Positions 8,073 through 64,000 are shown, counted from the first letter of the stretch. The stretch is 64,000 nucleotides of DNA from a virus (IMGVR_UViG_3300020203_000404:87811-151810); one strand, 5' to 3'. The notes: a model not told the origin generated them from the sequence alone. Made by a program: numbers and translations.

Positions 8073-9025
8073 ACGCCAAGACATTAGTTACTGGTTCGTC
8101 TGGATTTTTAGGTCAACATGTCGTTCCACTCTTACGTGCCGACGGTCATGAAGTGATGACCCCATCAAGTAACTCTTTGAACTTACTTGACCAAGACGCT
8201 AAGGCAATTGCGAGTTATCTTGTTATCCACGAGGTAAGTACGGTTGTTCATCTTGCTGCAATTTGTGGTGGCATCGGCATCAATAAAGACAATCCAGGTA
8301 AGTTCATGTATGGGAACTTGCAGATGGGTCTTAACGTTATCGAGGCGTGTCGCCTCGCTAACGTAAAGAAGCTTGTGAATTTGAGTACCGTCTGCTCGTA
8401 TCCCAAGAACACGCCGGTACCATTTCAAGAGAGTGATCTATGGATCGGCTATCCCGAAGAGACCAATGCTCCATATGGCATTGCCAAGAAAACGATTGTG
8501 GAGCTTGGTATTGCATACCATAAGCAGTATGGTTTAAACGTCACTAATCTAGTGCCGGTTAATATGGCCGGTGAGCACGATCATTTCGATCCTTATTCCT
8601 CTCATGTTGTGCCAGCTTTGATTCGCAAGTTTGAAGAAGCTGATCAACAAAGAGAGTATGTAGATATCTACTCAGTTAGTGCCCCACTTGTGACCTTATG
8701 GGGCACAGGATCTGCTTCTCGCGAGTTTTTGTATGCCGGTGATTGTGCCAAAGCGATTGCAATTGCCGTTCAAAAGAATACGGGGCCAGATCCCATCAAT
8801 CTTGGCACTGGTCAAGAAATTACCATCAAGCAGTTAGCCGAGTTGGTAAAGCAAATTGGTGGTTATGTTTCCAATGTCAAATGGGATCATACTAAGCCAG
8901 ATGGTCAACCACGCAGATCACTAGATGTTTCAAGAGCCAAGAACGTGCTTCACTGGGAAGCTACAACTCCTATTTCCGAAACGGTCCGCAAGACCATTGA
9001 CTGGTACAGAGAGAACAATGGGTAG
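8069..9025 (+). CDS. fcl: GDP-L-fucose synthase
   Basis: GSSGFLG, HLAAICGGI, CSYP, YGIAK, SHVVPALIRK, WGTGSASREF, KPDGQPRR. Confidence 0.93.
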   Translation: MNAKTLVTGSSGFLGQHVVPLLRADGHEVMTPSSNSLNLLDQDAKAIASYLVIHEVSTVVHLAAICGGIGINKDNPGKFMYGNLQMGLNVIEACRLANVKKLVNLSTVCSYPKNTPVPFQESDLWIGYPEETNAPYGIAKKTIVELGIAYHKQYGLNVTNLVPVNMAGEHDHFDPYSSHVVPALIRKFEEADQQREYVDIYSVSAPLVTLWGTGSASREFLYAGDCAKAIAIAVQKNTGPDPINLGTGQEITIKQLAELVKQIGGYVSNVKWDHTKPDGQPRRSLDVSRAKNVLHWEATTPISETVRKTIDWYRENNG

Positions 9026-9263
9026 AACACTAATAGACGTTGACGGTCAAAGATTTGGTAGACTTGTCGCAAGTAACAAAGTCAAGAAAATTGGACGTGC
9101 TATGTGTCGTCTATGTTACTGTGATTGTGGCAAAAAGACTTGGCAAGCTACAAAAGGATATACCAAGAAGAACTGTGTATCTTGTTGTAAAATCTGTAAT
9201 AGAGCTAAAAGCGGCATGGGGTTTGACGATTTTATGAGTTGGATTCGGAGATTACAAGCATGA
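9018..9263 (+). pseudogene. Internally deleted HNH homing endonuclease
   Basis: N-terminal CYCDCG joined almost directly to GYTKKNCVSCCKICNRAK; the central part present in paralogs is missing. Confidence 0.7.
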
Positions 9264-10279
9264 ACAAGACTGCTATAATTAGTGGTGTTGGCGGTCAAGA
9301 CGGAATGTACTTGTCGCATTATCTCTTGTCCTTGGGTTATCGAGTTGTAGGTATTCGTCGTCGCACATCGACCCCAAACTTAGTTCGATTACGTACTTTA
9401 ATAGGGTCGCCAAACTTTCATATTGTTGATGGTGACATTACTGACATTTCAAGCCTCCAGGACATCGTGCGTCAATTCCAACCGCACGAGTTCTATCACT
9501 TGGCCGCACAGAGCCATGTTGCGATGTCCTGGAAGTATCCTATCGCCACCTGCGAAATGACCGGCCTCGGTGTTTTGAATTGCCTTGAGGCTTTGAAGCA
9601 AGTGAAGCCAGACTGTCGTTTCTACTTTGCTGGTTCAAGCGAACAGTTCGGCAACCCAATTCACAATGGTAAGGTTGTGAGCTTGGACGAGAACACTCCT
9701 ATGGAGCCTGAGTCGCCATACGCGGCTGCCAAAGTCTTCGGCTACAATATTGCTCATGTGTATCGCCGTTCGTTTGGTATGTACACCGCCTGTGGCATTC
9801 TCTTCAATCACGAGTCTCCGCTTCGTGGAGAGGAGTTCGTCACACGAAAGATCACAAGCAACCTTGCTCGCGTCAAATGGGGCTTGCAGGATTGTGTAGA
9901 ACTCGGCAACATGGACGCTCAACGTGACTGGGGCTTCGCTGGCGATTACGTCAAGGCGATGCACGGCATGTTGCAGCTAGACACCCCAGACGATTTCGTA
10001 ATTGCAACAGGCAGCACGCACTCTGTGCGTAAGTTCTTTGACGCCTGCTGTAACTGGTTTGAACTCGATCCTGAAAAGGTTTATCGAATCAATCCTGCAT
10101 TCAAACGCCCCAAGGATGTTGAAGTATTGTTGGGCGATTCTTCCAAGGCCCGAAAGAAGTTGAACTGGTATCCTGAGTGCGACTTCGATCAGCTAGTAGA
10201 CAAGATGTGTCGTTACGACTACCATCTACAGTCGCCTGAACCCAACTTGTTCAGACGTGCTGACGAATTCCTTTTCTAG
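9260..10279 (+). CDS. gmd: GDP-mannose 4,6-dehydratase
   Basis: GVGGQDG, LAAQSHV, SPYAAAK, LFNHESPLRG..FVTRKIT, RDWGFAGDYV. Confidence 0.96.
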   Translation: MNKTAIISGVGGQDGMYLSHYLLSLGYRVVGIRRRTSTPNLVRLRTLIGSPNFHIVDGDITDISSLQDIVRQFQPHEFYHLAAQSHVAMSWKYPIATCEMTGLGVLNCLEALKQVKPDCRFYFAGSSEQFGNPIHNGKVVSLDENTPMEPESPYAAAKVFGYNIAHVYRRSFGMYTACGILFNHESPLRGEEFVTRKITSNLARVKWGLQDCVELGNMDAQRDWGFAGDYVKAMHGMLQLDTPDDFVIATGSTHSVRKFFDACCNWFELDPEKVYRINPAFKRPKDVEVLLGDSSKARKKLNWYPECDFDQLVDKMCRYDYHLQSPEPNLFRRADEFLF

Positions 10280-10287
10280 GAGTAAAT

Positions 10288-10974
10288 ATGAATGAGAATG
10301 AAAAGCCGCACGAGATCACTGAACGTGAGAAGCGTGCATGGCAAGAGGGTTCTAAGACCCGCAAACGTGATCGTCCTGCATTGACAATGCCACAGCGTAT
10401 TGAATTCTTGAAGATGGTTGCACAGCTTTCAAGTAATACAGCATTCGAAAGAAAGCTTGGATTGGGTGCTGCCGATGTTGACTTCTATAAAAAGGAGTTC
10501 AGTGTTGAAAATCAAGATGATGCTAGACGTTTGTATAAACGCCTAGAGATCGACATGATTGAAGGCAACGAAGAGCGTATTATTAGCGAGACAGGCAAAG
10601 CTCGTGACGCTGAGGCTACTGCTAATCTTAGACTGAAAGAGATTGAATTGCGTAAGACGATTGAGAAACGTGAAAAGACCGTTGGCACGCCGAACGGCAA
10701 TGCGATTCGTGCTGAGGATGCCGAACGTCAACAACGTTTCCAGCAAGAGCAAGACGCTCAAATGACAGAAGCTCTTGGCAATGGCGAACCTTGGTTTTTG
10801 CCACTTGAGGGCTCTGAATCCGATAGACGTGGCATGACCGAACGTTTCCGTCGAGACGTTGAGAATTGTGGTTTGCAGTTTTGTGTCAATAAGTATCGGG
10901 CCAGTCCCCTTCAATTGAAAACAGAAGCGGCAAGACTCAAGCTTCGCATCAATTGGGATAGAGTCAAAAGATGA
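10288..10974 (+). CDS. Hypothetical coiled-coil protein
   Basis: 228-aa ORF with AGGAG RBS. Confidence 0.6.
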   Translation: MNENEKPHEITEREKRAWQEGSKTRKRDRPALTMPQRIEFLKMVAQLSSNTAFERKLGLGAADVDFYKKEFSVENQDDARRLYKRLEIDMIEGNEERIISETGKARDAEATANLRLKEIELRKTIEKREKTVGTPNGNAIRAEDAERQQRFQQEQDAQMTEALGNGEPWFLPLEGSESDRRGMTERFRRDVENCGLQFCVNKYRASPLQLKTEAARLKLRINWDRVKR

Positions 10975-10984
10975 ACCGCAAACT

Positions 10985-11704
10985 ATGAAATTGACGCATC
11001 AAAGTTTGCAACAACTCTACGACACTATGTCGTTGGATGAAATGGCTATTCATGTAGGCATGTCAAAGTCTACCCTGTATTATCATATGAAAAAGTTGGG
11101 CGTCGCCCGTAGAAGTAAGAGTGACGCTCAACGTAAACACATTGAGACTACTGGTCATCAGAGAACTGGCAGTCATCATACGGGCGAGGCTCGCGAAAAG
11201 ATATCGACGGGCACGAAAGAGTTTTGGGAGTCCGATAGAGGTAAAGATCAGAAGGCTGCGTTATGTAAATTACGTCGCCAAGAATGGGCGGATAGCACAA
11301 GTAAGAAGCGTAGTGCCGTACTGGCACGCCTTCAAGATGCTCACAGGCCGGAGCCAGGCGAGCTTTCGAACTTTGGAAGGAAGTTGTCCACGTTCCTTGC
11401 AAGCAGGGAACGTGTTTCTACAGGAATCCGACTGACGAACGATCACGTCTCTGACATAATATTAGAGGACAGGAAGGTGGTCGTAGAGCTTATCTTCCCG
11501 ATTAGTATCTATGGAGAACAACAACAACATCGACTCGAAGAACGGTACGCACGCCTCACACAGCATTTGAATGCCGCAGGCTATCGCGTTATGATCATCG
11601 AGGACAAGTCCAATTCTGTATCGCAAGCTCGCTGTCAGCGGGTATATGATCAACTCTGTCTCTTTTTTCAAGAGACGCAACAGGCCAAGACAATCATTTC
11701 ATGA
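10985..11704 (+). CDS. HTH + putative DUF559/Vsr-like endonuclease domain protein
   Basis: N-terminal HTH (SLDEMAIHVGMSKSTLY); C-terminal SDII..KVVVEL...AGYRVMII. Confidence 0.5.
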   Translation: MKLTHQSLQQLYDTMSLDEMAIHVGMSKSTLYYHMKKLGVARRSKSDAQRKHIETTGHQRTGSHHTGEAREKISTGTKEFWESDRGKDQKAALCKLRRQEWADSTSKKRSAVLARLQDAHRPEPGELSNFGRKLSTFLASRERVSTGIRLTNDHVSDIILEDRKVVVELIFPISIYGEQQQHRLEERYARLTQHLNAAGYRVMIIEDKSNSVSQARCQRVYDQLCLFFQETQQAKTIIS

Positions 11705-12408
11705 CTATCACACCCAAGCTACCCCGATACGGCACTAACTGGGAAGACCAACTTCAACCTGCCGACATTGGTGCTCGAAAAGAAGAGAATAGGGAGATGC
11801 GAGTTGTATACTTGCGTGGTCTACAACGTCTCGCTCAAGACGCTGGCATGATTCGCAGTGAATGTAGACTCAACTTCATCACAAAGGACCAGACCGGATC
11901 AGTTGGCATCATGCAGGCTGTGTATACGGTTGAGTTTTCTGATGGTACTTGGTGGGTTGGAGCGGCTGACTGTAACTCGGCGAATACGTCAGAGAAGTAC
12001 ATGAAGTATCCAACGGCGGTGGCCGAGTCTCGTGCGGAAGCTCGTTGTCTTCGCAAGGCCCTGAACATTGGTATCCTGTCGTCGGAAGAGGTTGGCTTTA
12101 CTGATGGCGGTGCGATTGAACAAATTGCGGCCTCATCGAATAAGAAAGTTGATACACAGGTTGTGAAGGCTATTGAAAAGCTTTGTGAGTCTCGTGGCGT
12201 TACGAACGCCGAAGTGCTCGAAGCTATTCTTAGTAAAGGTCGCAATAGCTCTGTCTTTGAGCTTGGCGAATTGACGGTTGACGAAGGTCAGAAAGCCATG
12301 GGATGGCTAAACGAACAGAAACCGAAGGCGGTCAAGTTGACCGCCACCCAAGAACGTGACGCCCGCAAGAAGGAATTGCGAGCACAGACAGATAAGGATA
12401 ATTCATGA
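11701..12408 (+). CDS. Putative ssDNA-annealing/recombination protein (Rad52/Sak-like)
   Basis: AVAESRAEARCLRKALNIG..SSEE motif. Confidence 0.55.
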   Translation: MTITPKLPRYGTNWEDQLQPADIGARKEENREMRVVYLRGLQRLAQDAGMIRSECRLNFITKDQTGSVGIMQAVYTVEFSDGTWWVGAADCNSANTSEKYMKYPTAVAESRAEARCLRKALNIGILSSEEVGFTDGGAIEQIAASSNKKVDTQVVKAIEKLCESRGVTNAEVLEAILSKGRNSSVFELGELTVDEGQKAMGWLNEQKPKAVKLTATQERDARKKELRAQTDKDNS

Positions 12409-45474: not shown

Positions 45475-45909
45475 TCAGTCCAGTGTACAAGCCATTGCAT
45501 TCGAGGTGTTGAACGTGATCGCACCAGAGTTCGTGTCACGGTACCACCACTGAAAAAGGAGCGTCGTGCCAAGCGGCATCAGCGTCAAGTCAACCTGACG
45601 AGTTGCGTTGCCGTTCACGGTAGCAGTCGGCCCACCGACGCGAACGAATTGACCGAGCGGATTGATACACAACGTGCCGTTACCAAAAGGAACGTTGAAC
45701 TGGGTCGTGCCACACGTCAGTTGTGCAAACGACTGAGGCATTGCGTTCGTCAGCGTACAGCCGAGGTTGTTGTCGATTCGCGTTAGCGAGCCGGTGTAGT
45801 CACAATGGGCAACCAATCCAAGAGAATTGGGCTGCGAATCGCAGTAGTTGTAAGCGGAGCCAGCGGAGGCGGTAAGTGCTAGGAGGCACACAGCGATGAT
45901 GTTCTTCAT
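45475..45909 (-). CDS. Secreted protein resembling a Planctomycetota extracellular domain
   Basis: Signal peptide; YC..QPNSLG...PFGNGTLCI...FQWWYRD...FNTSNA; preceded by the cassette-type promoter. Confidence 0.6.
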   Translation of the reverse strand: MKNIIAVCLLALTASAGSAYNYCDSQPNSLGLVAHCDYTGSLTRIDNNLGCTLTNAMPQSFAQLTCGTTQFNVPFGNGTLCINPLGQFVRVGGPTATVNGNATRQVDLTLMPLGTTLLFQWWYRDTNSGAITFNTSNAMACTLD

Positions 45910-45951
45910 GCTTGAATGATACATCATTCTCACGGTTTGTCAAGCAAAAAA

Positions 45952-46557
45952 TCACTTTAAGCCGACGATTGAGCCGGGGGCGATGGTCGCGTCCTGGCCG
46001 ACGATCGCGTTCTCGTCGATGGTCACGTTCCTGCCGATGGTCACGTTCTCGTAGATGAGCACGTATTCGCCGATGGTCACGTTCTCGCCGATGATCGCGT
46101 TCTTGCCGATGTACGAGTACGAGCCGATGTTCGCGTGCTCGCCGATTTTCGAATCCTGGCCGATGTTCGCGTTCTCGCCGATGGTCACGTTCCAGCTGAT
46201 GTTCGCGTTCTTGCCGATGGTCGAGTACGAGCCGATGATCGAGTACGGGGCGATGGTCACGTTCCAGCCGATGGTCGCGTCCCGGTCGATGGTCGCGTCC
46301 CGGTCGATGGTCACGTTCTCGCCGATGGTCACGTTCTCGCCGATGGTCGAGTATGAGCCGATGTACGAGTCCTCGCCGATGGTCGCGTTCCTGCCGATGG
46401 TCGAGTGCGAGCCGATGGTCGCGTTCTCGCCGATGGTCACGTTCGGGCAGATGAGCACGTATTCGCCGATGGTCACGTTCTCGCCGATGGGTACGTTCGA
46501 GCCGACGTTGACCAGAACGGTCTTTCCGTCCGGGTTCGTGTGTGTGATGGTTTTCAT
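45952..46557 (-). CDS. LbH hexapeptide-repeat protein, cassette 1 (201 aa)
   Basis: MKTITHTNPDG cap; IGxxxx repeats. Confidence 0.9.
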   Translation of the reverse strand: MKTITHTNPDGKTVLVNVGSNVPIGENVTIGEYVLICPNVTIGENATIGSHSTIGRNATIGEDSYIGSYSTIGENVTIGENVTIDRDATIDRDATIGWNVTIAPYSIIGSYSTIGKNANISWNVTIGENANIGQDSKIGEHANIGSYSYIGKNAIIGENVTIGEYVLIYENVTIGRNVTIDENAIVGQDATIAPGSIVGLK

Positions 46558-46598
46558 GTTTTAATGATACATCATTCTCGCGGTCTGTCAAGCAAAAA
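46558..46598 (-). promoter_or_regulatory. Cassette promoter (also at 45910, 47259, 47708, 50013, 50372, 50749, 51306, 51773, 52596 on -; 63545, 63922 on +)
   Basis: TTGACA-GACCGCGAGAATGATG-TATCAT-TAAAAC-ATG; variant TTGACG..TATAAT; no Shine-Dalgarno. Confidence 0.85.
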
Positions 46599-47258
46599 TC
46601 ACTTTGAGCCGACGATTGAGCCGGGGGCGATGGTCGCGTTCTTGCTGACGGTCGCGTTCTTGCCGATGGTCGCGTTCCTGCCGATGGTCGCGTTCCTGCC
46701 GATGGTCACGTTCTCGCCGATGGTCGAGTACGAGCCGATGTGCGAACCCTCGCCGATGTGCGAACCCTCGCCGGTGTACGAATCCTCGCCGATGGTCGAG
46801 TACGAGCCGATGATCGCGTTCTTGCCGATGATCGCGTTCGGGCAGATGGTCACGTTCTCGCCGATGGTCACGTTCTCGTAGATGAGCACGTATTCGCCGA
46901 TGGTCACGTATTCGACGATGGTCACGTTCTCGCCGATGATCGCGTTCTTGCCGATGGTCGCGTTCGGGCAGATGGTCGAGTACGAGCCGATGGTCACGTT
47001 CCTGCCGATGATCGCGTTCGGGCAGATGGTCACGTTCTCGCCGATGTTCGCGTATTCGCCGATGGTCACGTTCCAGCCGATGTTCGCGTACTTGCCGATG
47101 TACGAGTACGAGCCGATGGTTGCGTTCTTGCCGATGATCGCGTTCTTGCCGATGCTCGCGTTCTTGCCGATGGTCACGTTCTCGTAGATGGTCACGTTCT
47201 CGCCGACGTTGACTTGAACGGTCTTGCCGTTCGGGTTCGTGTGCGTGATGGTTTTCAT
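46599..47258 (-). CDS. LbH hexapeptide-repeat protein, cassette 2 (219 aa)
   Basis: Same caps and repeats. Confidence 0.9.
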   Translation of the reverse strand: MKTITHTNPNGKTVQVNVGENVTIYENVTIGKNASIGKNAIIGKNATIGSYSYIGKYANIGWNVTIGEYANIGENVTICPNAIIGRNVTIGSYSTICPNATIGKNAIIGENVTIVEYVTIGEYVLIYENVTIGENVTICPNAIIGKNAIIGSYSTIGEDSYTGEGSHIGEGSHIGSYSTIGENVTIGRNATIGRNATIGKNATVSKNATIAPGSIVGSK

Positions 47259-47299
47259 GTTTTCATGATACATCATTCTCGCGGTCTGTCAAGCAAAAA

Positions 47300-47707
47300 T
47301 CACTTTGAGCCGACGATTGAGCCGGGGGTGATGGTCGCGTTCCTGCCGATGGTCGAGTGCGAGCCGATGCTCGCGTTCTTGCCGATGGTCACGTATTCGC
47401 CGATGGTCGAATTGACGCCGATGTACGAGTACAAGCCGATGTACGAGTGCAAGCCGATGGTTGCGTTCTCGCCGATGGTCACGTTCTTGTCGATGGTCGC
47501 GTGCTCGCCGATTTTCGAATCCTGGCCAATGTTCGCGTTCTCGCCGATGGTCACGTTCTCACCGATGTACGAGTCCTCGCAGATGGTCACGTATTCGCCG
47601 ATGGTCACGTTCTCGCAGATGGTTACGCCATAGCCGATGGTTACGTTCTCGCCGACGTTGACTTGAACGGTCTTGCCGTTCGGGTTCGTGTGCGTGATGG
47701 TTTTCAT
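47300..47707 (-). CDS. LbH hexapeptide-repeat protein, cassette 3 (135 aa)
   Basis: Same caps and repeats. Confidence 0.9.
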   Translation of the reverse strand: MKTITHTNPNGKTVQVNVGENVTIGYGVTICENVTIGEYVTICEDSYIGENVTIGENANIGQDSKIGEHATIDKNVTIGENATIGLHSYIGLYSYIGVNSTIGEYVTIGKNASIGSHSTIGRNATITPGSIVGSK

Positions 47708-47748
47708 GTTTTAATGATACATCATTCTCGCGGTCTGTCAAGCAAAAA

Positions 47749-48246
47749 TCACTTTGAGCCGACGGTTGAGCCGGGGGCGATGGTCGCGTCCTGGCCGACG
47801 ATCGCGTTCTTGCCGATGGTCGCGTTCTTGCCGATGGTCGCGTTCTTGCCGATGGTCGCGTTCTTGCCGATGGTCACTTCCCGGCGGATGTGCGAGCCCT
47901 CGCCAATGGTCGCGTCCTGGCCGATGGTCACGTTCTCGCCGATGGTCGCGTTCCTGCCGATAGTCAAGTGCGAGCCGATGGTCGAGTGCGGGCCGATGGT
48001 CACGTTCTCGCCGATGTACGAGTCCTCGCCGATGTACGAGTCCTCGCCGATGGTCGAGTACGAGCCGATGGTCGAGTACGAGTCGATGGTCACGTTCTCG
48101 CCGATGGTCGAGTACGAGCCGATGGTCGCGTATTCGCCGATGGTCACGTTCTCGTCGATGGTCACGTTCTCGTCGATGTACGAATCCTCGCCGACGCTGA
48201 CTTGAACGGTCTTTCCGTTCGGGTTCGTGTGTGTGATGGTTTTCAT
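47749..48246 (-). CDS. LbH hexapeptide-repeat protein, cassette 4 (165 aa)
   Basis: Same caps; ATG 5 nt downstream of the tRNA-Val CCA. Confidence 0.88.
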   Translation of the reverse strand: MKTITHTNPNGKTVQVSVGEDSYIDENVTIDENVTIGEYATIGSYSTIGENVTIDSYSTIGSYSTIGEDSYIGEDSYIGENVTIGPHSTIGSHLTIGRNATIGENVTIGQDATIGEGSHIRREVTIGKNATIGKNATIGKNATIGKNAIVGQDATIAPGSTVGSK

Positions 48247-48251
48247 TGTAT

Positions 48252-48325
48252 TGGTAGGCAATGAGGGAATTGAACCCCCGACTTCTGGATGTAAACCAGG
48301 CGTTTTACCACTAGACTAATCGCCC
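48252..48325 (-). tRNA. tRNA-Val(UAC)
   Basis: TT-TAC-AT loop, CCA. Confidence 0.9.
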
Positions 48326-48333
48326 GTGCTAAG

Positions 48334-48660
48334 TCAATCCCAAAGATGGAAAAAGTGCTCTCGGAACAGATTGAGGCCAGTTTCAACCTCAGTCCGCTCT
48401 TCCTCAGTCAGCATGTATATCGCACCATCTGAATCGACAATCAGCTTGAATGCCCTATGCATCTTTTCAAGCATGACAAGCCACGCTTCGTGACCGCCCT
48501 CCAACCCCATTGGAAAGCCATGATTATAAGTGTCAATAAAAGCTCGCAGACGAGGCTCGATGAATGCAGCGACTGTATTATTAAGAGACCACAATTCGCT
48601 ATCGTCAAATCCGCGAGTAAGACGTTGCCATAAGAAGTGTATCTTGCGAGATAATTTCAT
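48334..48660 (-). CDS. Hypothetical phage protein
   Basis: QRLTRGFDDSELWSL...GLNLFREHFFHLWD, recalled as a common phage motif. Confidence 0.7.
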   Translation of the reverse strand: MKLSRKIHFLWQRLTRGFDDSELWSLNNTVAAFIEPRLRAFIDTYNHGFPMGLEGGHEAWLVMLEKMHRAFKLIVDSDGAIYMLTEEERTEVETGLNLFREHFFHLWD

Positions 48661-48678
48661 ATTAATCCTAAAGTGTAT

Positions 48679-48755
48679 TGGAGCCATCGGTGGGCCACGA
48701 TCCCACAACCTATCGCTTACAAAGCGATTGCACCGCCTACTTGTGCTACGATGGC
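48679..48755 (-). tRNA. tRNA-Thr(UGU)
   Basis: ATCGC-TTTGTAA-GCGAT arm; atypical T loop ATCGTGG. Confidence 0.85.
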
Positions 48756-48881
48756 ATTTTCTTTTTACGAATGCGTTTAGCATTCTTATATGATGTTGGT
48801 AGACCGTGACGGTGATGCTCTATCATACACCCTCTTACGAGGGTGTGGGCTTGAAAAAGAAGAATTACATTTTCAAGTGTA

Positions 48882-48945
48882 TGGTGCCTCCCCGACGACC
48901 TTCTGCTCTTCACGCAGACGCTACTACTAACTGAGCTACAGAAGC
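48882..48945 (-). pseudogene. tRNA-Phe(GAA) lacking the T arm
   Basis: D arm and TCTGC-GTGAAGA-GCAGA intact; only 64 nt. Confidence 0.7.
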
Positions 48946-48961
48946 AAAAGCATGCTTGTAT

Positions 48962-49039
48962 TGGTGGGGAAGGCAGGACTCGAACCTGCGACCTTAAGGG
49001 TATACACCCTTGTTGCTCTCCCAACTGAGCTACTTCCCC
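48962..49039 (-). tRNA. tRNA with irregular anticodon arm (identity undetermined)
   Basis: Perfect acceptor, D and T arms; AAGGG-TGTATA-CCCTT with a 6-nt loop. Confidence 0.6.
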
Positions 49040-49062
49040 ATAGTGGAGTTAATGTACTTTGA

Positions 49063-49139
49063 TGGTGGACCGGGGGAGTGACGATCTCCCGACTTTCGGA
49101 TGCAAACCGAATGTTTTACCAACTTAGAACTACCAGCCC
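49063..49139 (-). tRNA. tRNA-Ala(UGC)
   Basis: TT-TGC-AT loop, G3:U70, atypical T loop ATCGTCA. Confidence 0.88.
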
Positions 49140-49149
49140 ATCCTAGCCG

Positions 49150-49503
49150 TTAAACACCAAAGAGACGCATATCTTTACTATGTTTTTCAAGAGCATTTTC
49201 TAATTCCATAATGATCTTGCCATAGACAAGCTCTAAATGGTCAGGGACATTGTGACGATGATTCGAACCACGCTTTTCGTGGTACAGGTTCAATACAGCG
49301 GTGATCCGCAGAGCATTGTCACGCACCTTACGGGCCGCAACCCATGATCGCTTCACGTTGTCAGGCGTTTTAGCGTGATCTAACCAGTAAGAACTATGAC
49401 CAACTCTCCAGTAAGAATTGTGACCAACCTTATAAGGCCCCGTCTTGCGTTCCTTTTTGAGAGCCTTTTGGCTCTCAGACATTTGCTTAATTAGGTTCTT
49501 CAA
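49150..49503 (-). CDS. Hypothetical protein
   Basis: ORF with VGHNSYW/VGHSSYW duplication. Confidence 0.55.
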   Translation of the reverse strand: MKNLIKQMSESQKALKKERKTGPYKVGHNSYWRVGHSSYWLDHAKTPDNVKRSWVAARKVRDNALRITAVLNLYHEKRGSNHRHNVPDHLELVYGKIIMELENALEKHSKDMRLFGV

Positions 49504-49552
49504 TGCGATCTGCGTATTTATAACGATTCACTCCGTTTATTGTTGAGCTTGA

Positions 49553-49613
49553 AAAGCCAAGTGGGGCTCGAACCCACGCACTGACCGTTTGGAGCGGTCT
49601 GAACTATACCCGC
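49553..49613 (-). pseudogene. Chimeric tRNA remnant (Gly-like 5' end fused to Trp(CCA) anticodon and T arms)
   Basis: GCGGGTATAGTTCA joined to GACCG-CTCCAAA-CGGTC..GGTTCGAGCC; acceptor does not pair. Confidence 0.55.
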
Positions 49614-49623
49614 AAAATTGGAA

Positions 49624-49887
49624 TCACACGGGTTTCCAAATCTTAGTTATTGTTTCTACTTGCTTTACTTCAGTACAGTCAAGAAAAAACTCAAAGTCAT
49701 AATCAGTAAAATAACTTCCCGTACGGCTAACACATAGCTCGTAATAAGGACCGTCACCTTCTCTAAATATGACACTAAGATTAGACCATTTACCTTGGTC
49801 TTGCCACTCTCCGATTTCTATAACCGTATACTTATCGGAGTCGTCGGTGAGGATTTCAGCCGCTTCTGATTCTGTTAATTGCATCAT
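49624..49887 (-). CDS. Hypothetical phage protein
   Basis: GAGG RBS; RTGSYFTDY...EVKQVE. Confidence 0.65.
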   Translation of the reverse strand: MMQLTESEAAEILTDDSDKYTVIEIGEWQDQGKWSNLSVIFREGDGPYYELCVSRTGSYFTDYDFEFFLDCTEVKQVETITKIWKPV

Positions 49888-50012
49888 AGTTTCCTCTGGT
49901 AAATCAATGCTTGAAAGATGGTGGATCTTGAGCCGGGGGCGATGGTCGCGTGCTCGCCGACGTTGACTTGAACGGTCTTGCCGTTCGGGTTCGTGTGCGT
50001 GATGGTTTTCAT
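49884..50012 (-). pseudogene. Collapsed cassette 5 (caps plus about one repeat, 42 aa)
   Basis: MKTITHTNPNGKTVQVNVGEHATIAPGS followed by an unrelated tail. Confidence 0.8.
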
Positions 50013-50053
50013 GTTTTAATGATACATCATTCTCGCGGTCTGTCAAGCAAAAA

Positions 50054-50371
50054 TCACTTTAGGCCGACGATTGAGCCGGGGGCGATGGTCGCGTTCTTGC
50101 CGATGTACGAGTACGAGCCGATGGTCACGTTCTTGCCGATGATCGCGTTCGGGCAGATAGTCACGTATTCGCCGATGTTCGCGTTCTTGCCGATGTTCGC
50201 GTGCTTGCCGATGTACGAGTACGAGCCGATGTACGAGTGCGAGCCGATGGTCGAGTCCTCGCAGATGGTCACGTATTCGCCGATGATCGAGCCATCGGCG
50301 ATGGTCACGTTCTTGCCGACGCTGACTTGAACGGTTTTGCCGTTCGGGTTCGTGTGTGTGATGGTTTTCAT
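50054..50371 (-). CDS. LbH hexapeptide-repeat protein, cassette 6 (105 aa)
   Basis: Same caps and repeats. Confidence 0.9.
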   Translation of the reverse strand: MKTITHTNPNGKTVQVSVGKNVTIADGSIIGEYVTICEDSTIGSHSYIGSYSYIGKHANIGKNANIGEYVTICPNAIIGKNVTIGSYSYIGKNATIAPGSIVGLK

Positions 50372-50412
50372 GCTTCAATTATACATTATTCTCGCGGCTC
50401 GTCAAGCAAAAA

Positions 50413-50748
50413 TCACCTTAAGCCGACGGTTGAGCCATCGGCGATGGTCGCGTTCCTGCCGATGATCGAGTACGAGTCGATGGTCACGTTCTTGCCGACG
50501 GTCGAGTACGAGCCGATGTTCGCGTACTCGCCGATGTTCACGTACGAGCCGATGTTCACGTACGAGCCGATGTTCGCGTACGAGCCGATGTTCACGTACG
50601 AGCCGATGTTCGCGTACGAGCCGACGTTCGAGCCCCAGCTGATGGTTACGTGCTCGCCGATTGTCGCGTTCGGGCCGATGTTCGCGTTCGGGCCGACGTT
50701 GACTTGAACGGTCTTGCCGTTCGGGTTCGTGTGCGTGATGGTTTTCAT
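50413..50748 (-). CDS. LbH hexapeptide-repeat protein, cassette 7 (111 aa)
   Basis: Same caps; IGSY(A/V)N-rich. Confidence 0.9.
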   Translation of the reverse strand: MKTITHTNPNGKTVQVNVGPNANIGPNATIGEHVTISWGSNVGSYANIGSYVNIGSYANIGSYVNIGSYVNIGEYANIGSYSTVGKNVTIDSYSIIGRNATIADGSTVGLR

Positions 50749-50789
50749 GTTTTAATGATACATCATTCTCGCGGTCTGTCAAGCAAAAA

Positions 50790-51305
50790 TCACTTTGAGC
50801 CGACGGTTGAGCCATCGGCGATGGTCGCGTCCTGGCCGACGATCGCGTCCCGGACGATGTACGAGTTCTTGCCGATGATCGCGTTCTTGCCGATGGTCGC
50901 GTGCTCGCCGATGGTCACGTTCCTGCCGATGTTCGCGTTCTCGCAGATGAGCACGTATTCGCCGATGTACGAGTTCTCGCGGATGATCACGTTCTCGCCG
51001 ATGGTCACGTTCTTGCCGATGGTCACGTTCTTGCCGATGATCGCGTTCTTGTCGATGGTCGCGTTCCTGCCGATGGTCACGTTCTCGTAGATGAGCACGT
51101 ATTCGCCGATGGTCACGTTCTCGCCGATGTTCGCGTTCTTGCGGATGGTCGCGTTCGGGCAGATGGTCGAGCACGAGCCGACGTGCGAACCATCGGCGAT
51201 GTTCGCGTATTCGCCGATGGTCACGTTCCAGCCGATGGTCACGTTCTCGCCGACGTTGACTTGAACGGTCTTGCCGTTCGGGTTCGTGTGTTTGATTGTA
51301 TTCAT
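50790..51305 (-). CDS. LbH hexapeptide-repeat protein, cassette 8 (171 aa)
   Basis: Same caps and repeats. Confidence 0.9.
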   Translation of the reverse strand: MNTIKHTNPNGKTVQVNVGENVTIGWNVTIGEYANIADGSHVGSCSTICPNATIRKNANIGENVTIGEYVLIYENVTIGRNATIDKNAIIGKNVTIGKNVTIGENVIIRENSYIGEYVLICENANIGRNVTIGEHATIGKNAIIGKNSYIVRDAIVGQDATIADGSTVGSK

Positions 51306-51346
51306 GTTTTAATGATACATCATTCTCGCGGTCTGTCAAGCAAAAG

Positions 51347-51772
51347 TCACTTTGAGCCGACGATTGAGCCGGGGGCGATGGTCGCGTCCTGGCCGACGAT
51401 CGCGTCCCGGACGATGTACGAGTTCTCGCCGATGTTCGCGTTCTCGCCGATGATCGCGTTCTTGCCGACGGTCGAGTACGAGCCGATGGTCACGTTCTTG
51501 CCGATGGTCGCGTTCTCGCCGATGGTCACTTCCCGGCGGACGTGCGAGCCCTCGCCAATGGTCGCGTCCTGGCCGATGGTCACGTTCTCACCGATGGTCA
51601 CTTCCCGGCGGACGTGCGAGCCCTCGCCAATGGTCGCGTTCTCGCCGATGGTCGCGTTCTCGCAGATGGTCACGTTCTCGCCGATGGTCACGTTCTTGCC
51701 GATGGTCACGTTCTTGCCGACGCTGACTTGAACGGTTTCGCCGTTCGGGTTCGTGTGCGTGATGGTTTTCAT
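51347..51772 (-). CDS. LbH hexapeptide-repeat protein, cassette 9 (141 aa)
   Basis: Same caps and repeats. Confidence 0.9.
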   Translation of the reverse strand: MKTITHTNPNGETVQVSVGKNVTIGKNVTIGENVTICENATIGENATIGEGSHVRREVTIGENVTIGQDATIGEGSHVRREVTIGENATIGKNVTIGSYSTVGKNAIIGENANIGENSYIVRDAIVGQDATIAPGSIVGSK

Positions 51773-51786
51773 GTTTTAATGATACA

Positions 51787-52257
51787 TCATTCTCGCGGTC
51801 TGTCAAGCAAAAAACACTTTGGGCCGACGGTTGAGCCATCGGCGATGGTCGCGTTCCTGCCGATGATCGAGTACGAGTCGATGGTCACGTTCTTGCCGAC
51901 GGTCGAGTACGAGCCGATGATCGCGTTCTTGCCGATGGTCGCGTTCTCGCCGATGGTCGCGTTCTCGCCGATGATCGCGTTCTGGCCGATGTACGAGTAC
52001 GAGCCGATGGTTGCGTTCAAGCCGATGGTCGCGTTCCTGCCGATGGTCGCGTTCTCGCCGATGATCGCGTTCGGGCAGATGATCACGTATTCGACGATGG
52101 TCGAGTACGAGTCGATGTTCGAACCGACGCCGATGTTCGCGTTCTCGCCGATGGTCACGTTCTCGCCGATGATCGCGTTCTTGGCGATGGTCACGTTCTC
52201 GCCGACGCTGACTTGAACGGTTTCGCCGTTCGGGTTCGTGTGTGTGATGATATTCAT
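51787..52257 (-). CDS. LbH hexapeptide-repeat protein, cassette 10 (147 aa + 9-aa extension)
   Basis: Usual TGA is TGT here, so the frame runs into the next promoter. Confidence 0.88.
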   Translation of the reverse strand: MNIITHTNPNGETVQVSVGENVTIAKNAIIGENVTIGENANIGVGSNIDSYSTIVEYVIICPNAIIGENATIGRNATIGLNATIGSYSYIGQNAIIGENATIGENATIGKNAIIGSYSTVGKNVTIDSYSIIGRNATIADGSTVGPKCFLLDRPRE

Positions 52258-52295
52258 GTCTTAGGATACCCTATAAGTGCGAAAAAAGCAAAAAA

Positions 52296-52595
52296 TCACT
52301 CTGGGCCGATGTACGAGTACAAGCCGATGTACGAGTCCTTACCGATGGTCACGTGCTCGCCGGTGGTCACGTGCTCACAGATGGTCACGTTCTCGCCGAT
52401 GGTCGAGCCATCGCCGATGATCGCGTGCTTGCCGATGTTCGAGCCCTGGCCGATGTTCAAGTCCTCGCCGATGGTCGAACCCCGACCGATTGTCACGAAC
52501 TTGCCGATGGTCACGTTCTCGCCGATGGTCACGTTCTTGCCGACGCTGACTTGAACGGTTTTACCGTTCGGGTTCGTGTGTGTGATGGTTTTCAT
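52296..52595 (-). CDS. LbH hexapeptide-repeat protein, cassette 11 (99 aa, most divergent)
   Basis: Same N-cap, different C-end (IGPE). Confidence 0.88.
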   Translation of the reverse strand: MKTITHTNPNGKTVQVSVGKNVTIGENVTIGKFVTIGRGSTIGEDLNIGQGSNIGKHAIIGDGSTIGENVTICEHVTTGEHVTIGKDSYIGLYSYIGPE

Positions 52596-52719
52596 GCTTC
52601 GATTATACATCATTCTCGCGGCTCGTCAAGCAAAAAATCACTCTAAAAAGCGGTCGCGACTCTCAATGGCCTACACCAACACAGAATCTCATTTTTTTCT
52701 TTTCAAGTTGTCTTGAAGA

Positions 52720-59982: not shown

Positions 59983-60061
59983 TGCGGAGTAGAGAAGCCC
60001 GGCTGTTCTCGTCTGCCTCATAAGCAGAAGATCGTGGGTTCGAATCCCACCTCCGCTACCA
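59983..60061 (+). tRNA. tRNA-Met(CAU), initiator-like
   Basis: TCTGC-CTCATAA-GCAGA arm; 1:72 mismatch; CCA. Confidence 0.88.
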
Positions 60062-60099
60062 TTTATCGAAGCACGAAGACTTGCGGAACAAGGAGCGGC

Positions 60100-61206
60100 G
60101 TGAAGGTACAGCGTGGTTACAAGACCGAATTGAGGTTGAACGACAAACAACGAACCGCATGTCTCAAACATGCAGGGGCGGCTCGTTACACCTACAATTG
60201 GGGCTTGAGCCAGAAGAAGATGGCATACGAGAACGGCGAAAAGACGCCCAACGCCATCGAACTCCACCGCCGACTCAATGCTCTCAAACCGACTGAACTG
60301 CCGTGGATGTACGCAGTATCAAAGTGCAGCCCACAAGAGGCTCTACGCAATCTGGATCGTGCCTACGATAACTTCTTCAAGAAGCGGGGCAAGTTCCCAA
60401 AGTTCAAGAGCAAAAAGAATGGCATCGGCGGCTTCCGGCTGACTGGCACAATCAAGGTTACGGAGAACACGGTGCAACTGCCCCGGCTCGGTGTCCTGAA
60501 ACTCAAGGAACGTGGCTATTTGCCCACGGACGCCAAGATACTGTCAGCAAGCGTCTCAGAACGTGCTGGACGCTGGTTCGTGAGCATTCAGGTCGAGGAA
60601 GACCTACCAGAGTACAACGGCGTCAAGGACGAGCATGACGTGGTTGGCGTGGACTTGGGCATCAAGACGTTGGCAACCGTGAGTGATGGTACGAAGTACG
60701 AGAACCCGAAGCCGTTGAAGACGAAACTCAGAAAGTTGAAGAAACTCCAGCAGAGCGTCAGCCGGAAGGTCAAAGGAAGCCAGAACAGGAAGAAAGCGAC
60801 CAAGAAAGTAGCCCGACTCCATCTCAGGATCAGCAACGTCCGCAAGAACACGTTGCACAAGATGACGACGACTTTAGCGAAAACCAAGCGGGTTGTCGTG
60901 ATCGAGGACTTGAATGTGTCTGGCATGATGAAGAACAGGTGCTTGTCTCGGTCGATAGCCGATCTTGGCTTGTTTGAATTACGAAGACAGTTGTCCTATA
61001 AGGGCGGCTGGTATTCTTGCAAGATCGTGCCAGTGGACAGGTTCTTCCCATCCAGCAAGACGTGTAGCGTCTGCGGGGAGATCAAGGAAGACTTGACACT
61101 GGCTGATCGAGAATGGGATTGTGGCGGTTGTGGTACGCATCATGACCGGGATCACAACGCATCAGTTAATTTAGAGAACGTCGCTGCAAGTTCTGTAGAG
61201 ACGTAA
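60100..61206 (+). CDS. tnpB: TnpB RNA-guided endonuclease
   Basis: AGGAG + GTG start; HTH; RuvC GVDLG / IEDL / DRDHNA; CSVC..CGGC zinc finger. Confidence 0.95.
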   Translation: MKVQRGYKTELRLNDKQRTACLKHAGAARYTYNWGLSQKKMAYENGEKTPNAIELHRRLNALKPTELPWMYAVSKCSPQEALRNLDRAYDNFFKKRGKFPKFKSKKNGIGGFRLTGTIKVTENTVQLPRLGVLKLKERGYLPTDAKILSASVSERAGRWFVSIQVEEDLPEYNGVKDEHDVVGVDLGIKTLATVSDGTKYENPKPLKTKLRKLKKLQQSVSRKVKGSQNRKKATKKVARLHLRISNVRKNTLHKMTTTLAKTKRVVVIEDLNVSGMMKNRCLSRSIADLGLFELRRQLSYKGGWYSCKIVPVDRFFPSSKTCSVCGEIKEDLTLADREWDCGGCGTHHDRDHNASVNLENVAASSVET

Positions 61207-63391: not shown

Positions 63392-63585
63392 AATTCTTGA
63401 AAAGGAGTTGACAGCCGATCTATACGGCTGCCATTTTGGCAGCCATAATCCTACGGTGGCCCCCGGTCCTCCACCATGACGCTGAACTATATCACACGAA
63501 ACGTGTTACGTCAAGCCGATGGCTCAACCGTCGGCTCAAAGTGATTTTTGTTTGACAGACCGCGAGAATGATGTATCATTAAAAC

Positions 63586-63921
63586 ATGAAAACCATCACG
63601 CACACGAACCCGAACGGCAAGACCGTTCAAGTCAACGTCGGCTCGAACGTAACCATCGGCTATGGCGTAACCATCTGCGAGAACGTGACCATCGGCGAAT
63701 ACGCGAACATCGTCGATGGTTCGCACGTCGGCTCGTACTCGACCATCGGCAAGAACGCGACCATCGGCAAGAACGCGATCATCCGCGAGCACGCGACCAT
63801 CGGCAAGAACGCGATCATCCGCGAGCACGCGACCATCGGCGAGAACGCGACCATCGGCAAGAACTCGTACATCGGCAAGAACGCGACCATCGCCCCCGGC
63901 TCAATCGTCGGCTCAAAGTGA
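63586..63921 (+). CDS. LbH hexapeptide-repeat protein, cassette 12 (111 aa)
   Basis: Same caps and repeats. Confidence 0.9.
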   Translation: MKTITHTNPNGKTVQVNVGSNVTIGYGVTICENVTIGEYANIVDGSHVGSYSTIGKNATIGKNAIIREHATIGKNAIIREHATIGENATIGKNSYIGKNATIAPGSIVGSK

Positions 63922-63962
63922 TTTTTGCTTGACAGACCGCGAGAATGATGTATCATTAAAAC

Positions 63963-64000
63963 ATGAAAACCATCACGCACACGAACCCGAACGGCAAGAC
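63963..64000 (+). CDS. LbH cassette 13 (truncated by window end)
   Basis: MKTITHTNPNGK. Confidence 0.8.
   Translation, partial: MKTITHTNPNGK

Follow-up and report, generated by a model that had tools for sequence, protein, structure and literature searches.

The 64,000-nucleotide stretch of viral DNA analysed here, referred to as the window, is the final 64 kb of a 151,810-bp IMG/VR virus record (IMGVR_UViG_3300020203_000404, or G000; completeness rating 96%), and its arrays of short repeat genes probably represent a lineage-specific, fast-turnover family of small non-enzymatic beta-helix proteins that is shuffled by recombination in the early-type plastic regions of a phage carrying rIIA and rIIB. 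Array A lies on the minus strand at 45952-52595 and comprises ten complete genes of 99-219 amino acids (aa) and one 42-aa stub, all of a single family; a stretch of tRNAs and small genes outside the family (48247-50053) splits it. Array B has the opposite orientation, begins at 63586 and, past the contig end, continues at the beginning of the record, and both ends of the 151.8 kb contig fall within cassettes, as the genes of the family are called here. The whole genome holds 23 complete genes of the family, none identical to another, together with the stub and one copy cut at the contig end, and family DNA makes up 6.8% of the genome.

Each cassette starts with a constant 17-aa N-cap (MKTITHTNPNGKTVQVN, with a beta-hairpin around NPNG) and ends in a short C-cap, which is either IAPGSIVGSK-like or of the form IG[PLF]E / IG[PLS]DA; the 11-37 hexapeptide modules between the caps keep a perfect 18-nt register, and with its promoter the whole constitutes one portable unit. 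Pfam Hexapep was matched by all ten window genes at E 1e-16 to 4e-53 (60-176 bits, cut-off 27), LbH_EIF2B matches among the same ten genes reached 98 bits (cut-off 54), and the module table contained no cassette with insertions, loops or extra domains. The open reading frames (ORFs) and the Hexapep matches confirm the hexapeptide family that had been described at this position in an earlier sequence-only reading; what was counted there as cassette 5 does belong to the family, but is only the 42-aa stub (49884-50012) and not a complete gene.

The modules are drawn from a small fixed-codon vocabulary, as that reading had claimed. Genome-wide, 430 modules fall into 142 amino-acid types and 157 nucleotide types, and of the 70 amino-acid types that recur, just 13 occur in more than one nucleotide version. 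The companion statement, that most modules are ATCGGC followed by listed turn and strand dipeptides, was borderline, with 132 of the 216 modules of the window array starting with ATCGGC and 112 of the 216 fitting all three lists. Amino-acid entropy is uneven along the module (0.57, 1.55, 2.68, 2.11, 1.75 and 1.93 bits at positions 1 to 6) and not uniform; 99% of modules have I or V at position 1, 98% have A, S or V at position 5, and Thr occupies outward position 6 in 59%. Such a pattern fits hexapeptide geometry, in which positions 1 and 5 point inward and are fixed in kind while 3, 4 and 6 vary, and the proposal that variation falls mainly on turn and outward positions is upheld.

Silent sites carry a record of the origin of the modules. 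The consensus unit is ATC GGC GAG AAC GCG ACC, and third bases are off consensus in 1-14% of modules, against 12-58% for the first and second bases of codons 3-6. The retained third base tracks the position in the unit and not the amino acid: at position 5, Val is encoded by GTG and Ser by TCG, but GTC is used for Val at positions 1 and 2 and AGC for Ser at position 2; Arg at position 3 is CGG or AGG, codons rare elsewhere in the genome. GC content at third codon positions (GC3) is 95% in modules versus 45% in 81 other ORFs. These position-specific frozen third bases and the high GC3 argue that the modules all descend from one founder 18-mer, ATC GGC GAG AAC G[CT]G ACC, with few silent changes since.

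Mosaicism is evident throughout the arrays, whose cassettes are designated c1 to c10 in array A and by the letter b (b0 being the first) in array B. The five rare blocks named in the sequence-only reading recur where it had placed them, with 0-1 nt differences across 36-96 nt. Different cassettes share 14 exact runs of at least three modules, whereas 300 shuffles of modules within cassettes gave 0.43 +/- 0.72; for runs of at least five modules the count is 3 versus 0 in shuffles, and the longest run spans 8 modules. Two blocks common to c1 and the array-B gene b6 stand in opposite order, and each cassette combines pieces of several donors and has no single collinear sister; b7, for instance, is tiled by blocks best matched in c4, b4, b0 and c7. 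Furthermore, among 46 distinct complete cassettes, whose 5' ends are of three types (two variants of the sigma-70-like promoter, plus a second promoter class) and whose C-caps are of four, 11 of the 12 possible combinations occur. Because of the reversed blocks, the patchworks and the end combinations, a simple duplication tree is insufficient, and the block swapping proposed earlier is borne out by these patterns and by a chimeric cassette described below. Neighbouring modules are identical in 6.6% of cases versus about 2% for distant ones, so that local slippage or unequal exchange also acts; a three-module (one-turn) periodicity was not found in the cassettes.

Related contigs reveal the same processes between phages. 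Metagenome contigs were scanned with the N-cap DNA pattern, which yielded 22 loci, some of which, on contigs of other samples or assemblies, carry exact copies of cassettes of the window genome; the cassettes and several neighbour pairs are thus reproducible. In L014, a copy of b7 differs solely by deletion of exactly one 18-nt module. In L024, a copy of b8 has 14 differing sites, all inside 4 of 26 modules (p < 1e-5), and no exact donor for the replaced 31-nt patch was present among the sampled cassettes. A chimera in L008 equals c5 over six modules and then continues into a different tail with a c6/c9-type cap. Cassette order changes as well: L012 reads c10, c9, c5, b7 and then the array-B flank, L018 reads b5, b6, c1 and then the array-A flank, and these two junctions of array A with array B fit the pair expected from an inversion between the inverted arrays. 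A b7-like gene occupies the b0 site in L014, and the tRNA-Val/c4 junction bears different cassettes in other contigs. G001, the closest long relative with a backbone 95-98% identical, has a single cassette at the c1-c4 site and three unrelated ORFs at the c5-c10 site. In G001 (L001 5567-6771 and 9338-9958), one of the c5-c10-site ORFs carries a HAD_SAK_2 domain (E 2.5e-23), and a 206-aa ORF without family precedes the single cassette.

The junction unit between adjacent cassettes, consisting of C-cap, promoter and N-cap, is 137 nt long with 95.7% mean identity over ten copies from both arrays; judged by this length and identity, it appears to be the main homology for whole-cassette exchange and ample for general recombination. 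Within modules, a clean 18-nt deletion was found between two GGACGCGA repeats and another between ATCGGCGAG repeats. The sequence-only reading had assigned in-register recombination to ATCGGC microhomology. Changes do keep the 18-nt register, and ATCGGC may help to keep it; an operative role is not established, as breakpoints cannot be placed in a hexamer that never varies and the deletions lie between other repeats. Neither an RVT_1 reverse transcriptase nor a tyrosine or serine recombinase (Phage_integrase, Resolvase) was matched in the 96%-complete genome, while a RecA/UvsX-type gene (E 2e-43) is present outside the window. Given that gene and the failure to find site-specific and reverse-transcriptase systems, we infer that ordinary homologous recombination, like the shuffling by promoter early stem-loop (PeSL) elements in T4-type phages, is the best explanation of the reshuffling, which is seen between phage genotypes and not within one infection. 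The repertoire is rearranged at three scales, namely module duplication or deletion, exchange or conversion of multi-module blocks, and whole-cassette change, the last by gain, loss, reordering or inversion.

A first class of cassette promoters, P1, has the pattern TTGAC[AG], 16 nt, TAT[CA]AT, with the -10 element ending 6 nt before ATG, as in the minus-strand copy at 46564..46591 (TTGACA, 16 nt, TATCAT, 6 nt to ATG). Pattern matches on the minus strand lie at 45916-45943, 47265-47292, 47714-47741, 50019-50046, 50378-50405, 50755-50782, 51312-51339, 51779-51806 and 52602-52629, and those of array B on the plus strand at 63552-63579 and 63929-63956. P1 agrees with the sigma-70 consensus at 11 of 12 positions and is a promoter predicted from sequence; the pattern has 10 matches in the window versus 0 in shuffles, and 18 in the genome. 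It precedes the stub and the window genes other than c4, which follows the end of a tRNA-Val gene, and c9, which has a second class, P2, at 52263..52290 on the minus strand (TTGCTT, 16 nt, TATCCT, 5 nt to ATG). The P2 unit (CTCTTGCTTTTTCG...TAGGGTATCCTAAGAC-ATG), also noted outside the window in G000 8177-11800 (+), abuts the start codon and precedes at least five non-family genes and some cassettes.

The usual sigma-70 start spacing puts the transcription start at or beside the A of such an ATG, and a Shine-Dalgarno-like 4-mer occurs in 0 of 21 units versus 48 of 113 other ORFs. With the -10 element 5-6 nt before ATG and no Shine-Dalgarno sequence, transcription would start at or next to the ATG, which predicts that the cassettes are transcribed as leaderless early mRNAs; starts that look leaderless may be the rule in one gene class of the phage. 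Since the promoter-ATG units also head unrelated genes, the unit itself is portable, for example in front of a 144-aa non-family gene (45475..45909, minus strand) that would be driven by the P1 copy at 45916-45943, has an apparent N-terminal signal sequence and matches no Pfam family. No terminator-like site was found between cassettes on the coding strand, and junction folding was no better than in shuffles (z -0.27). Symmetry is confined to AATGAT-GT-ATCATT, a 6-bp inverted repeat that overlaps the -10 element at 46564-46577 and in all other P1 copies and may be a protein-binding site and not an RNA hairpin.

An AlphaFold2 (AF2) model of c3 is a regular triangular solenoid with a mean confidence (pLDDT) of 91, and module counts do not follow multiples of three. 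When this model and that of a distant relative, P0214 (pLDDT 78), were compared with left-handed beta-helix (LbH) enzymes, Z was 12-15 with a root-mean-square deviation (rmsd) of 11-12 Å; against right-handed triangular or square helices (bactofilin 2n3d, 6ria and pentapeptide proteins) the rmsd of both models was 2.1-3.0 Å, and c3 superposed on bactofilin BacA with Z 11.4 and 2.5 Å over 102 residues. The models thus appear mirror-wound relative to LbH proteins, which would indicate either an AF2 error of hand or a right-handed family with a hexapeptide-like sequence; the handedness comes from two AF2 models, and AF2 can err on hand. The Pfam bactofilin family (PF04519) was not matched at E <= 0.01 among the window genes. 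Foldseek against PDB and BFVD returned weak solenoid matches only (TM 0.2-0.4), and a homotrimer prediction with three copies of c3 scored 0.00, which has no weight either way.

Relatives outside the arrays were found mainly through the N-cap. Its profile gathered more than 20 representatives from other metagenomes starting with an HTNP[DN]G..V.V hairpin, modelled as a beta-hairpin in P0214, whose C-terminal domain gave a VIA-align list filled with beta-helix matches in which no family stood out. The cassettes match PHROG 5353, of unassigned function, at E 1e-17 to 3e-46 over the repeat part only (about positions 28-178 of 256), and P0121 matches positions 78-249 of the same group. A database of 5.8 billion proteins returned generic hexapeptide enzymes and one true N-cap relative, P0004, which has little bearing on rarity. 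On another phage contig (L032 5743-7351), a single-copy N-cap relative lies two genes from a pentapeptide-repeat protein with DUF5758. Small solenoid proteins may be recurrent in such early regions.

All of array A lies on the minus strand. There c1 (45952..46557, 201 aa) has 30 full modules and a 4-aa end (Hexapep E 3e-44), and c2 (46599..47258) has 219 aa counted from its MKT start, a longer ORF to 47276 starting within the promoter. The modelled c3 (47300..47707, 135 aa) is supported by its ORF and Hexapep match, and c4 (47749..48246, 165 aa) has no promoter of its own, its ATG lying 5 nt past the CCA end of tRNA-Val (48252-48325). The stub consists of the N-cap, one module and the beginning of a C-cap followed by unrelated sequence; it may form the promoter-bearing 5' end of the transcript of an 85-aa non-family gene (49627-49884, minus strand) that has its own Shine-Dalgarno sequence. 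Beyond it stand c5 (50054..50371, 105 aa), whose body is identical in contigs L012 and L020, and c6 (50413..50748, 111 aa) and c7 (50790..51305, 171 aa), both supported by ORF and Hexapep match and both with identical copies in L020. An 8-module block (148 nt) of c8 (51347..51772, 141 aa) is exactly equal in the array-B gene at G000:4727-5206. The stop codon of c9 (51787..52257, 156 aa) has changed from TGA to TGT (51773-51822), adding 12 aa that run into the next promoter, while the intact form in L012 ends in ...VGLR; c10 (52296..52595, 99 aa) has the alternative C-cap IGPE. On the plus strand, array B opens with b0 (63586..63921, 111 aa) and runs past the window end, a further cassette (63963..64000) being represented by its 5' end only, cut at the contig end. 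All six frames are open over the repeats, and the resulting shadow ORFs on the plus strand (46055-52554, at most 297 aa long) should not be annotated as genes.

The surrounding genes are those of a large phage. The window encodes rIIA, rIIB, ribonucleotide reductase, two RNA ligases, DNA ligase, a CCA-adding enzyme and a PRPP synthase-like protein, with ten tRNA calls. The closest GenBank phage homologue of its rIIA is only 33% identical, and a nucleotide search against phage GenBank records gave no match. Related contigs were sampled from microbial-mat metagenomes and from one sample labelled LV_Brine, presumably Lake Vida in Antarctica, and the virus is apparently a phage of cold microbial mats. 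Within the tRNA island dividing array A, an ARAGORN call at 48962-49039 (minus strand) has a four-base anticodon (gtat) and no assigned identity. A TnpB-type ORF of 390 aa at 60034-61206 (+), with matches to OrfB_IS605 (E 1e-31), Cas12f1-like TNB and HTH_OrfB, starts inside or just past the phage tRNA-Met gene (59983-60061).

From the promoter type, the genomic position, the excess of amino-acid change and the rapid turnover, the proteins are tentatively proposed to be a diverse set of early cytoplasmic binders or decoys in phage-host conflict, which is the weakest step and, taken by itself, rather less likely than not. The fuller picture, in which about 25 beta-helix 'prisms' form a heritable recombining repertoire that is expressed at once from leaderless early transcripts and whose variable surfaces bind or decoy varied targets of host defence or takeover, is possible but rather doubtful. 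In the proposed scheme amino-acid diversity would be favoured by selection. Several points weigh against this overall interpretation. Amino-acid change is indeed in excess in the comparison of synonymous with non-synonymous diversity suggested by the sequence-only reading, but the piN/piS of 2.84 over modules is a rough measure for units that are 18 nt long, paralogous and exchanging sequence, and a minimum-spanning-tree count gives a lower ratio of 1.5-1.7. In support of the excess, only 13 of 151 module-type pairs one step apart are synonymous versus 25-29% expected (p <= 3e-7); low synonymous diversity could also arise from a force that keeps G and C, such as codon selection or GC-biased conversion, and the observed synonymous variants are all changes of G or C to A or T. 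No conserved prism face or residue beyond the repeat rule was found, the three faces varying equally, so that nothing hints at a fixed interface, and isoelectric points (pI) range from 4.05 to 9.37, which leaves no single target-pointing surface chemistry. Promoters, transcript starts, protein products and partners are all predicted, and all data are short-read metagenome assemblies, in which identical repeats of 40-150 bases can be mis-joined. Separately, the pI span rules out DNA mimicry as a general property.

That last feature of the data bears on the idea that the mosaics are chimeric joins of short reads across near-identical repeats. The contig ends of G000 and G001 inside cassettes do indicate that assemblers struggle there, but the same cassettes and neighbour pairs (c10-c9, c7-c6, b5-b6, the stub after c5) recur across samples and assembly projects, the chimeric c5-type cassette and its neighbours are present in more than one contig (the 5' part in L015; X1 and X2 in L008, L015 and L020), and contigs break at the repeats instead of reading through them, which makes an artefact quite unlikely. 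Plain tandem duplication of whole genes, with later point mutations and module indels but without exchange between copies, is hardly credible: local duplication happens, as the excess of identical adjacent modules attests, and a residual association of 5' with 3' types is left, but the reversed c1/b6 blocks, the want of any single collinear sister, the nearly complete set of end combinations, the sharp-breakpoint chimera and the confinement of 14 differences to 4 of 26 modules all contradict it. Nor is there much room for programmed diversification during the life cycle through a dedicated system like diversity-generating retroelements (DGRs), shufflons or those of variable lymphocyte receptors (VLRs), pilS or vlsE, which is considered very improbable. 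Varying first and second bases beside fixed third bases superficially resemble DGR targets, and the inverted arrays with their inversion junctions are reminiscent of shufflons; against this, the 96%-complete genome has no match to a reverse transcriptase or a tyrosine or serine recombinase, the variable bases are not adenine-specific but include G7, G13, C14 and C17 of the unit among the most variable, and nearly all copies are complete, expressed-looking genes and not silent donors.

Two further explanations concern what is under selection and for what use. If the DNA or promoter cassette and not the protein were selected, the family would be a selfish or regulatory PeSL-like element with a tolerated repeat ORF; the promoter-ATG unit drives unrelated genes too, an intact ORF is weak evidence where six frames are open, and close relatives thrive with far fewer copies. 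This is nevertheless unlikely, as the beta-helix constraints are kept (I/V at position 1, G at position 2, A/S/V at position 5), the N-cap is conserved at the protein level also in distant phage proteins, and changes are in-frame, with caps retained in each reading frame examined. A structural or environmental role, as virion decoration, possibly glycosylated fibres or ice-binding rods adapted to the cold, has only a slight chance of being correct. N-x-S/T sites occur at about 4 per 100 aa, the related contigs come from mats and brine, and Thr dominates outward position 6. Sigma-70-like promoters in an rII/tRNA region are, however, typical of early genes, a GT41-type N-glycosyltransferase was not found in the genome, the cassette proteins have no signal peptide, and ice-binding faces are regular and conserved whereas the three faces vary equally here.

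Among known systems, the PeSL is the nearest described phenomenon. PeSLs of T4-type phages are repeated intergenic units with a strong sigma-70-like promoter in hyperplastic regions; they sit just upstream of non-essential ORFs and mark insertions, deletions and replacements between close phages, and recombination between units shuffles genes (Arbiol et al. 2010, PMC2839356; Comeau et al. 2014, PMC4122927). The cassettes have in common with them repeated early promoters at indel boundaries, and PeSL-like marking of indels or replacements between close phages is present in G001 versus G000 and in L012, L014, L018, L020 and L025. Unlike PeSLs, the cassette units have no stem-loop terminator and no Shine-Dalgarno sequence, their -10 element abuts the ATG, their homology reaches into the coding caps (137 nt), and paralogues of one family are shuffled instead of unrelated ORFans. 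A bacterial parallel is the tandem cluster of lpl lipoprotein paralogues of Staphylococcus aureus, whose conserved evolutionary unit runs from the 3' end of an ORF across the intergenic region to the 5' end of the ORF that follows (Tsuru and Kobayashi 2008, PMC2568036). It resembles the cassettes in its conserved junction unit and variable central parts, and differs in being a bacterial chromosome locus with different proteins and without internal 18-nt modules.

At the protein level, PHROG 5353 shares the N-terminal HTNP[DN]G hairpin and the hexapeptide repeats, and one relative lies among small early-looking phage genes; the relatives seen occur as single copies, each with a C-terminal domain (about 60 aa, beta/alpha, conserved G-C...W), whereas the cassettes have no such domain and about 25 copies. 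LbH acyltransferases and gamma-carbonic anhydrases (LpxA, GlmU, PglD) follow the same rule, [LIV]-[GAED]-x-x-[STAV]-x, with Hexapep/LbH matches and 20-30% identity to the cassettes in structure-based alignments. The cassettes differ from these enzymes as pure repeats without loops, extra domains or a conserved catalytic residue, and their AF2 models would be wound oppositely. The earlier comparison with VLRs and transcription activator-like effectors (TALEs) stands for the limited set of modular repeats and for variable residues on the exposed side of a solenoid, as it does for DGR, pilS and vlsE systems, but fails for mechanism: the search for a dedicated enzyme found none, nearly all copies carry a promoter, a start and a stop of their own and so leave no silent donor cassettes, a single expression site is absent, and the variation is seen between genotypes.

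Large paralogue families are unusual in phages of such size, and the one described here leaves a clean record of how a repeat repertoire is built, with a founder unit, frozen silent sites, an excess of amino-acid change, exchange at three scales and natural intermediates in related contigs. The PeSL idea of promoter cassettes as recombination handles is extended, in that the handle includes coding caps and the start codon, and a whole class of leaderless early phage mRNAs is predicted. Were the proteins shown to be binders or decoys, this idealised, length-tolerant scaffold would model how phages explore surface diversity. Should the repertoire reading be true, copy number and content would track the host population, and the family would parallel repeat-based recognition repertoires in a germline form that is driven by recombination and operates without a dedicated diversifying enzyme.

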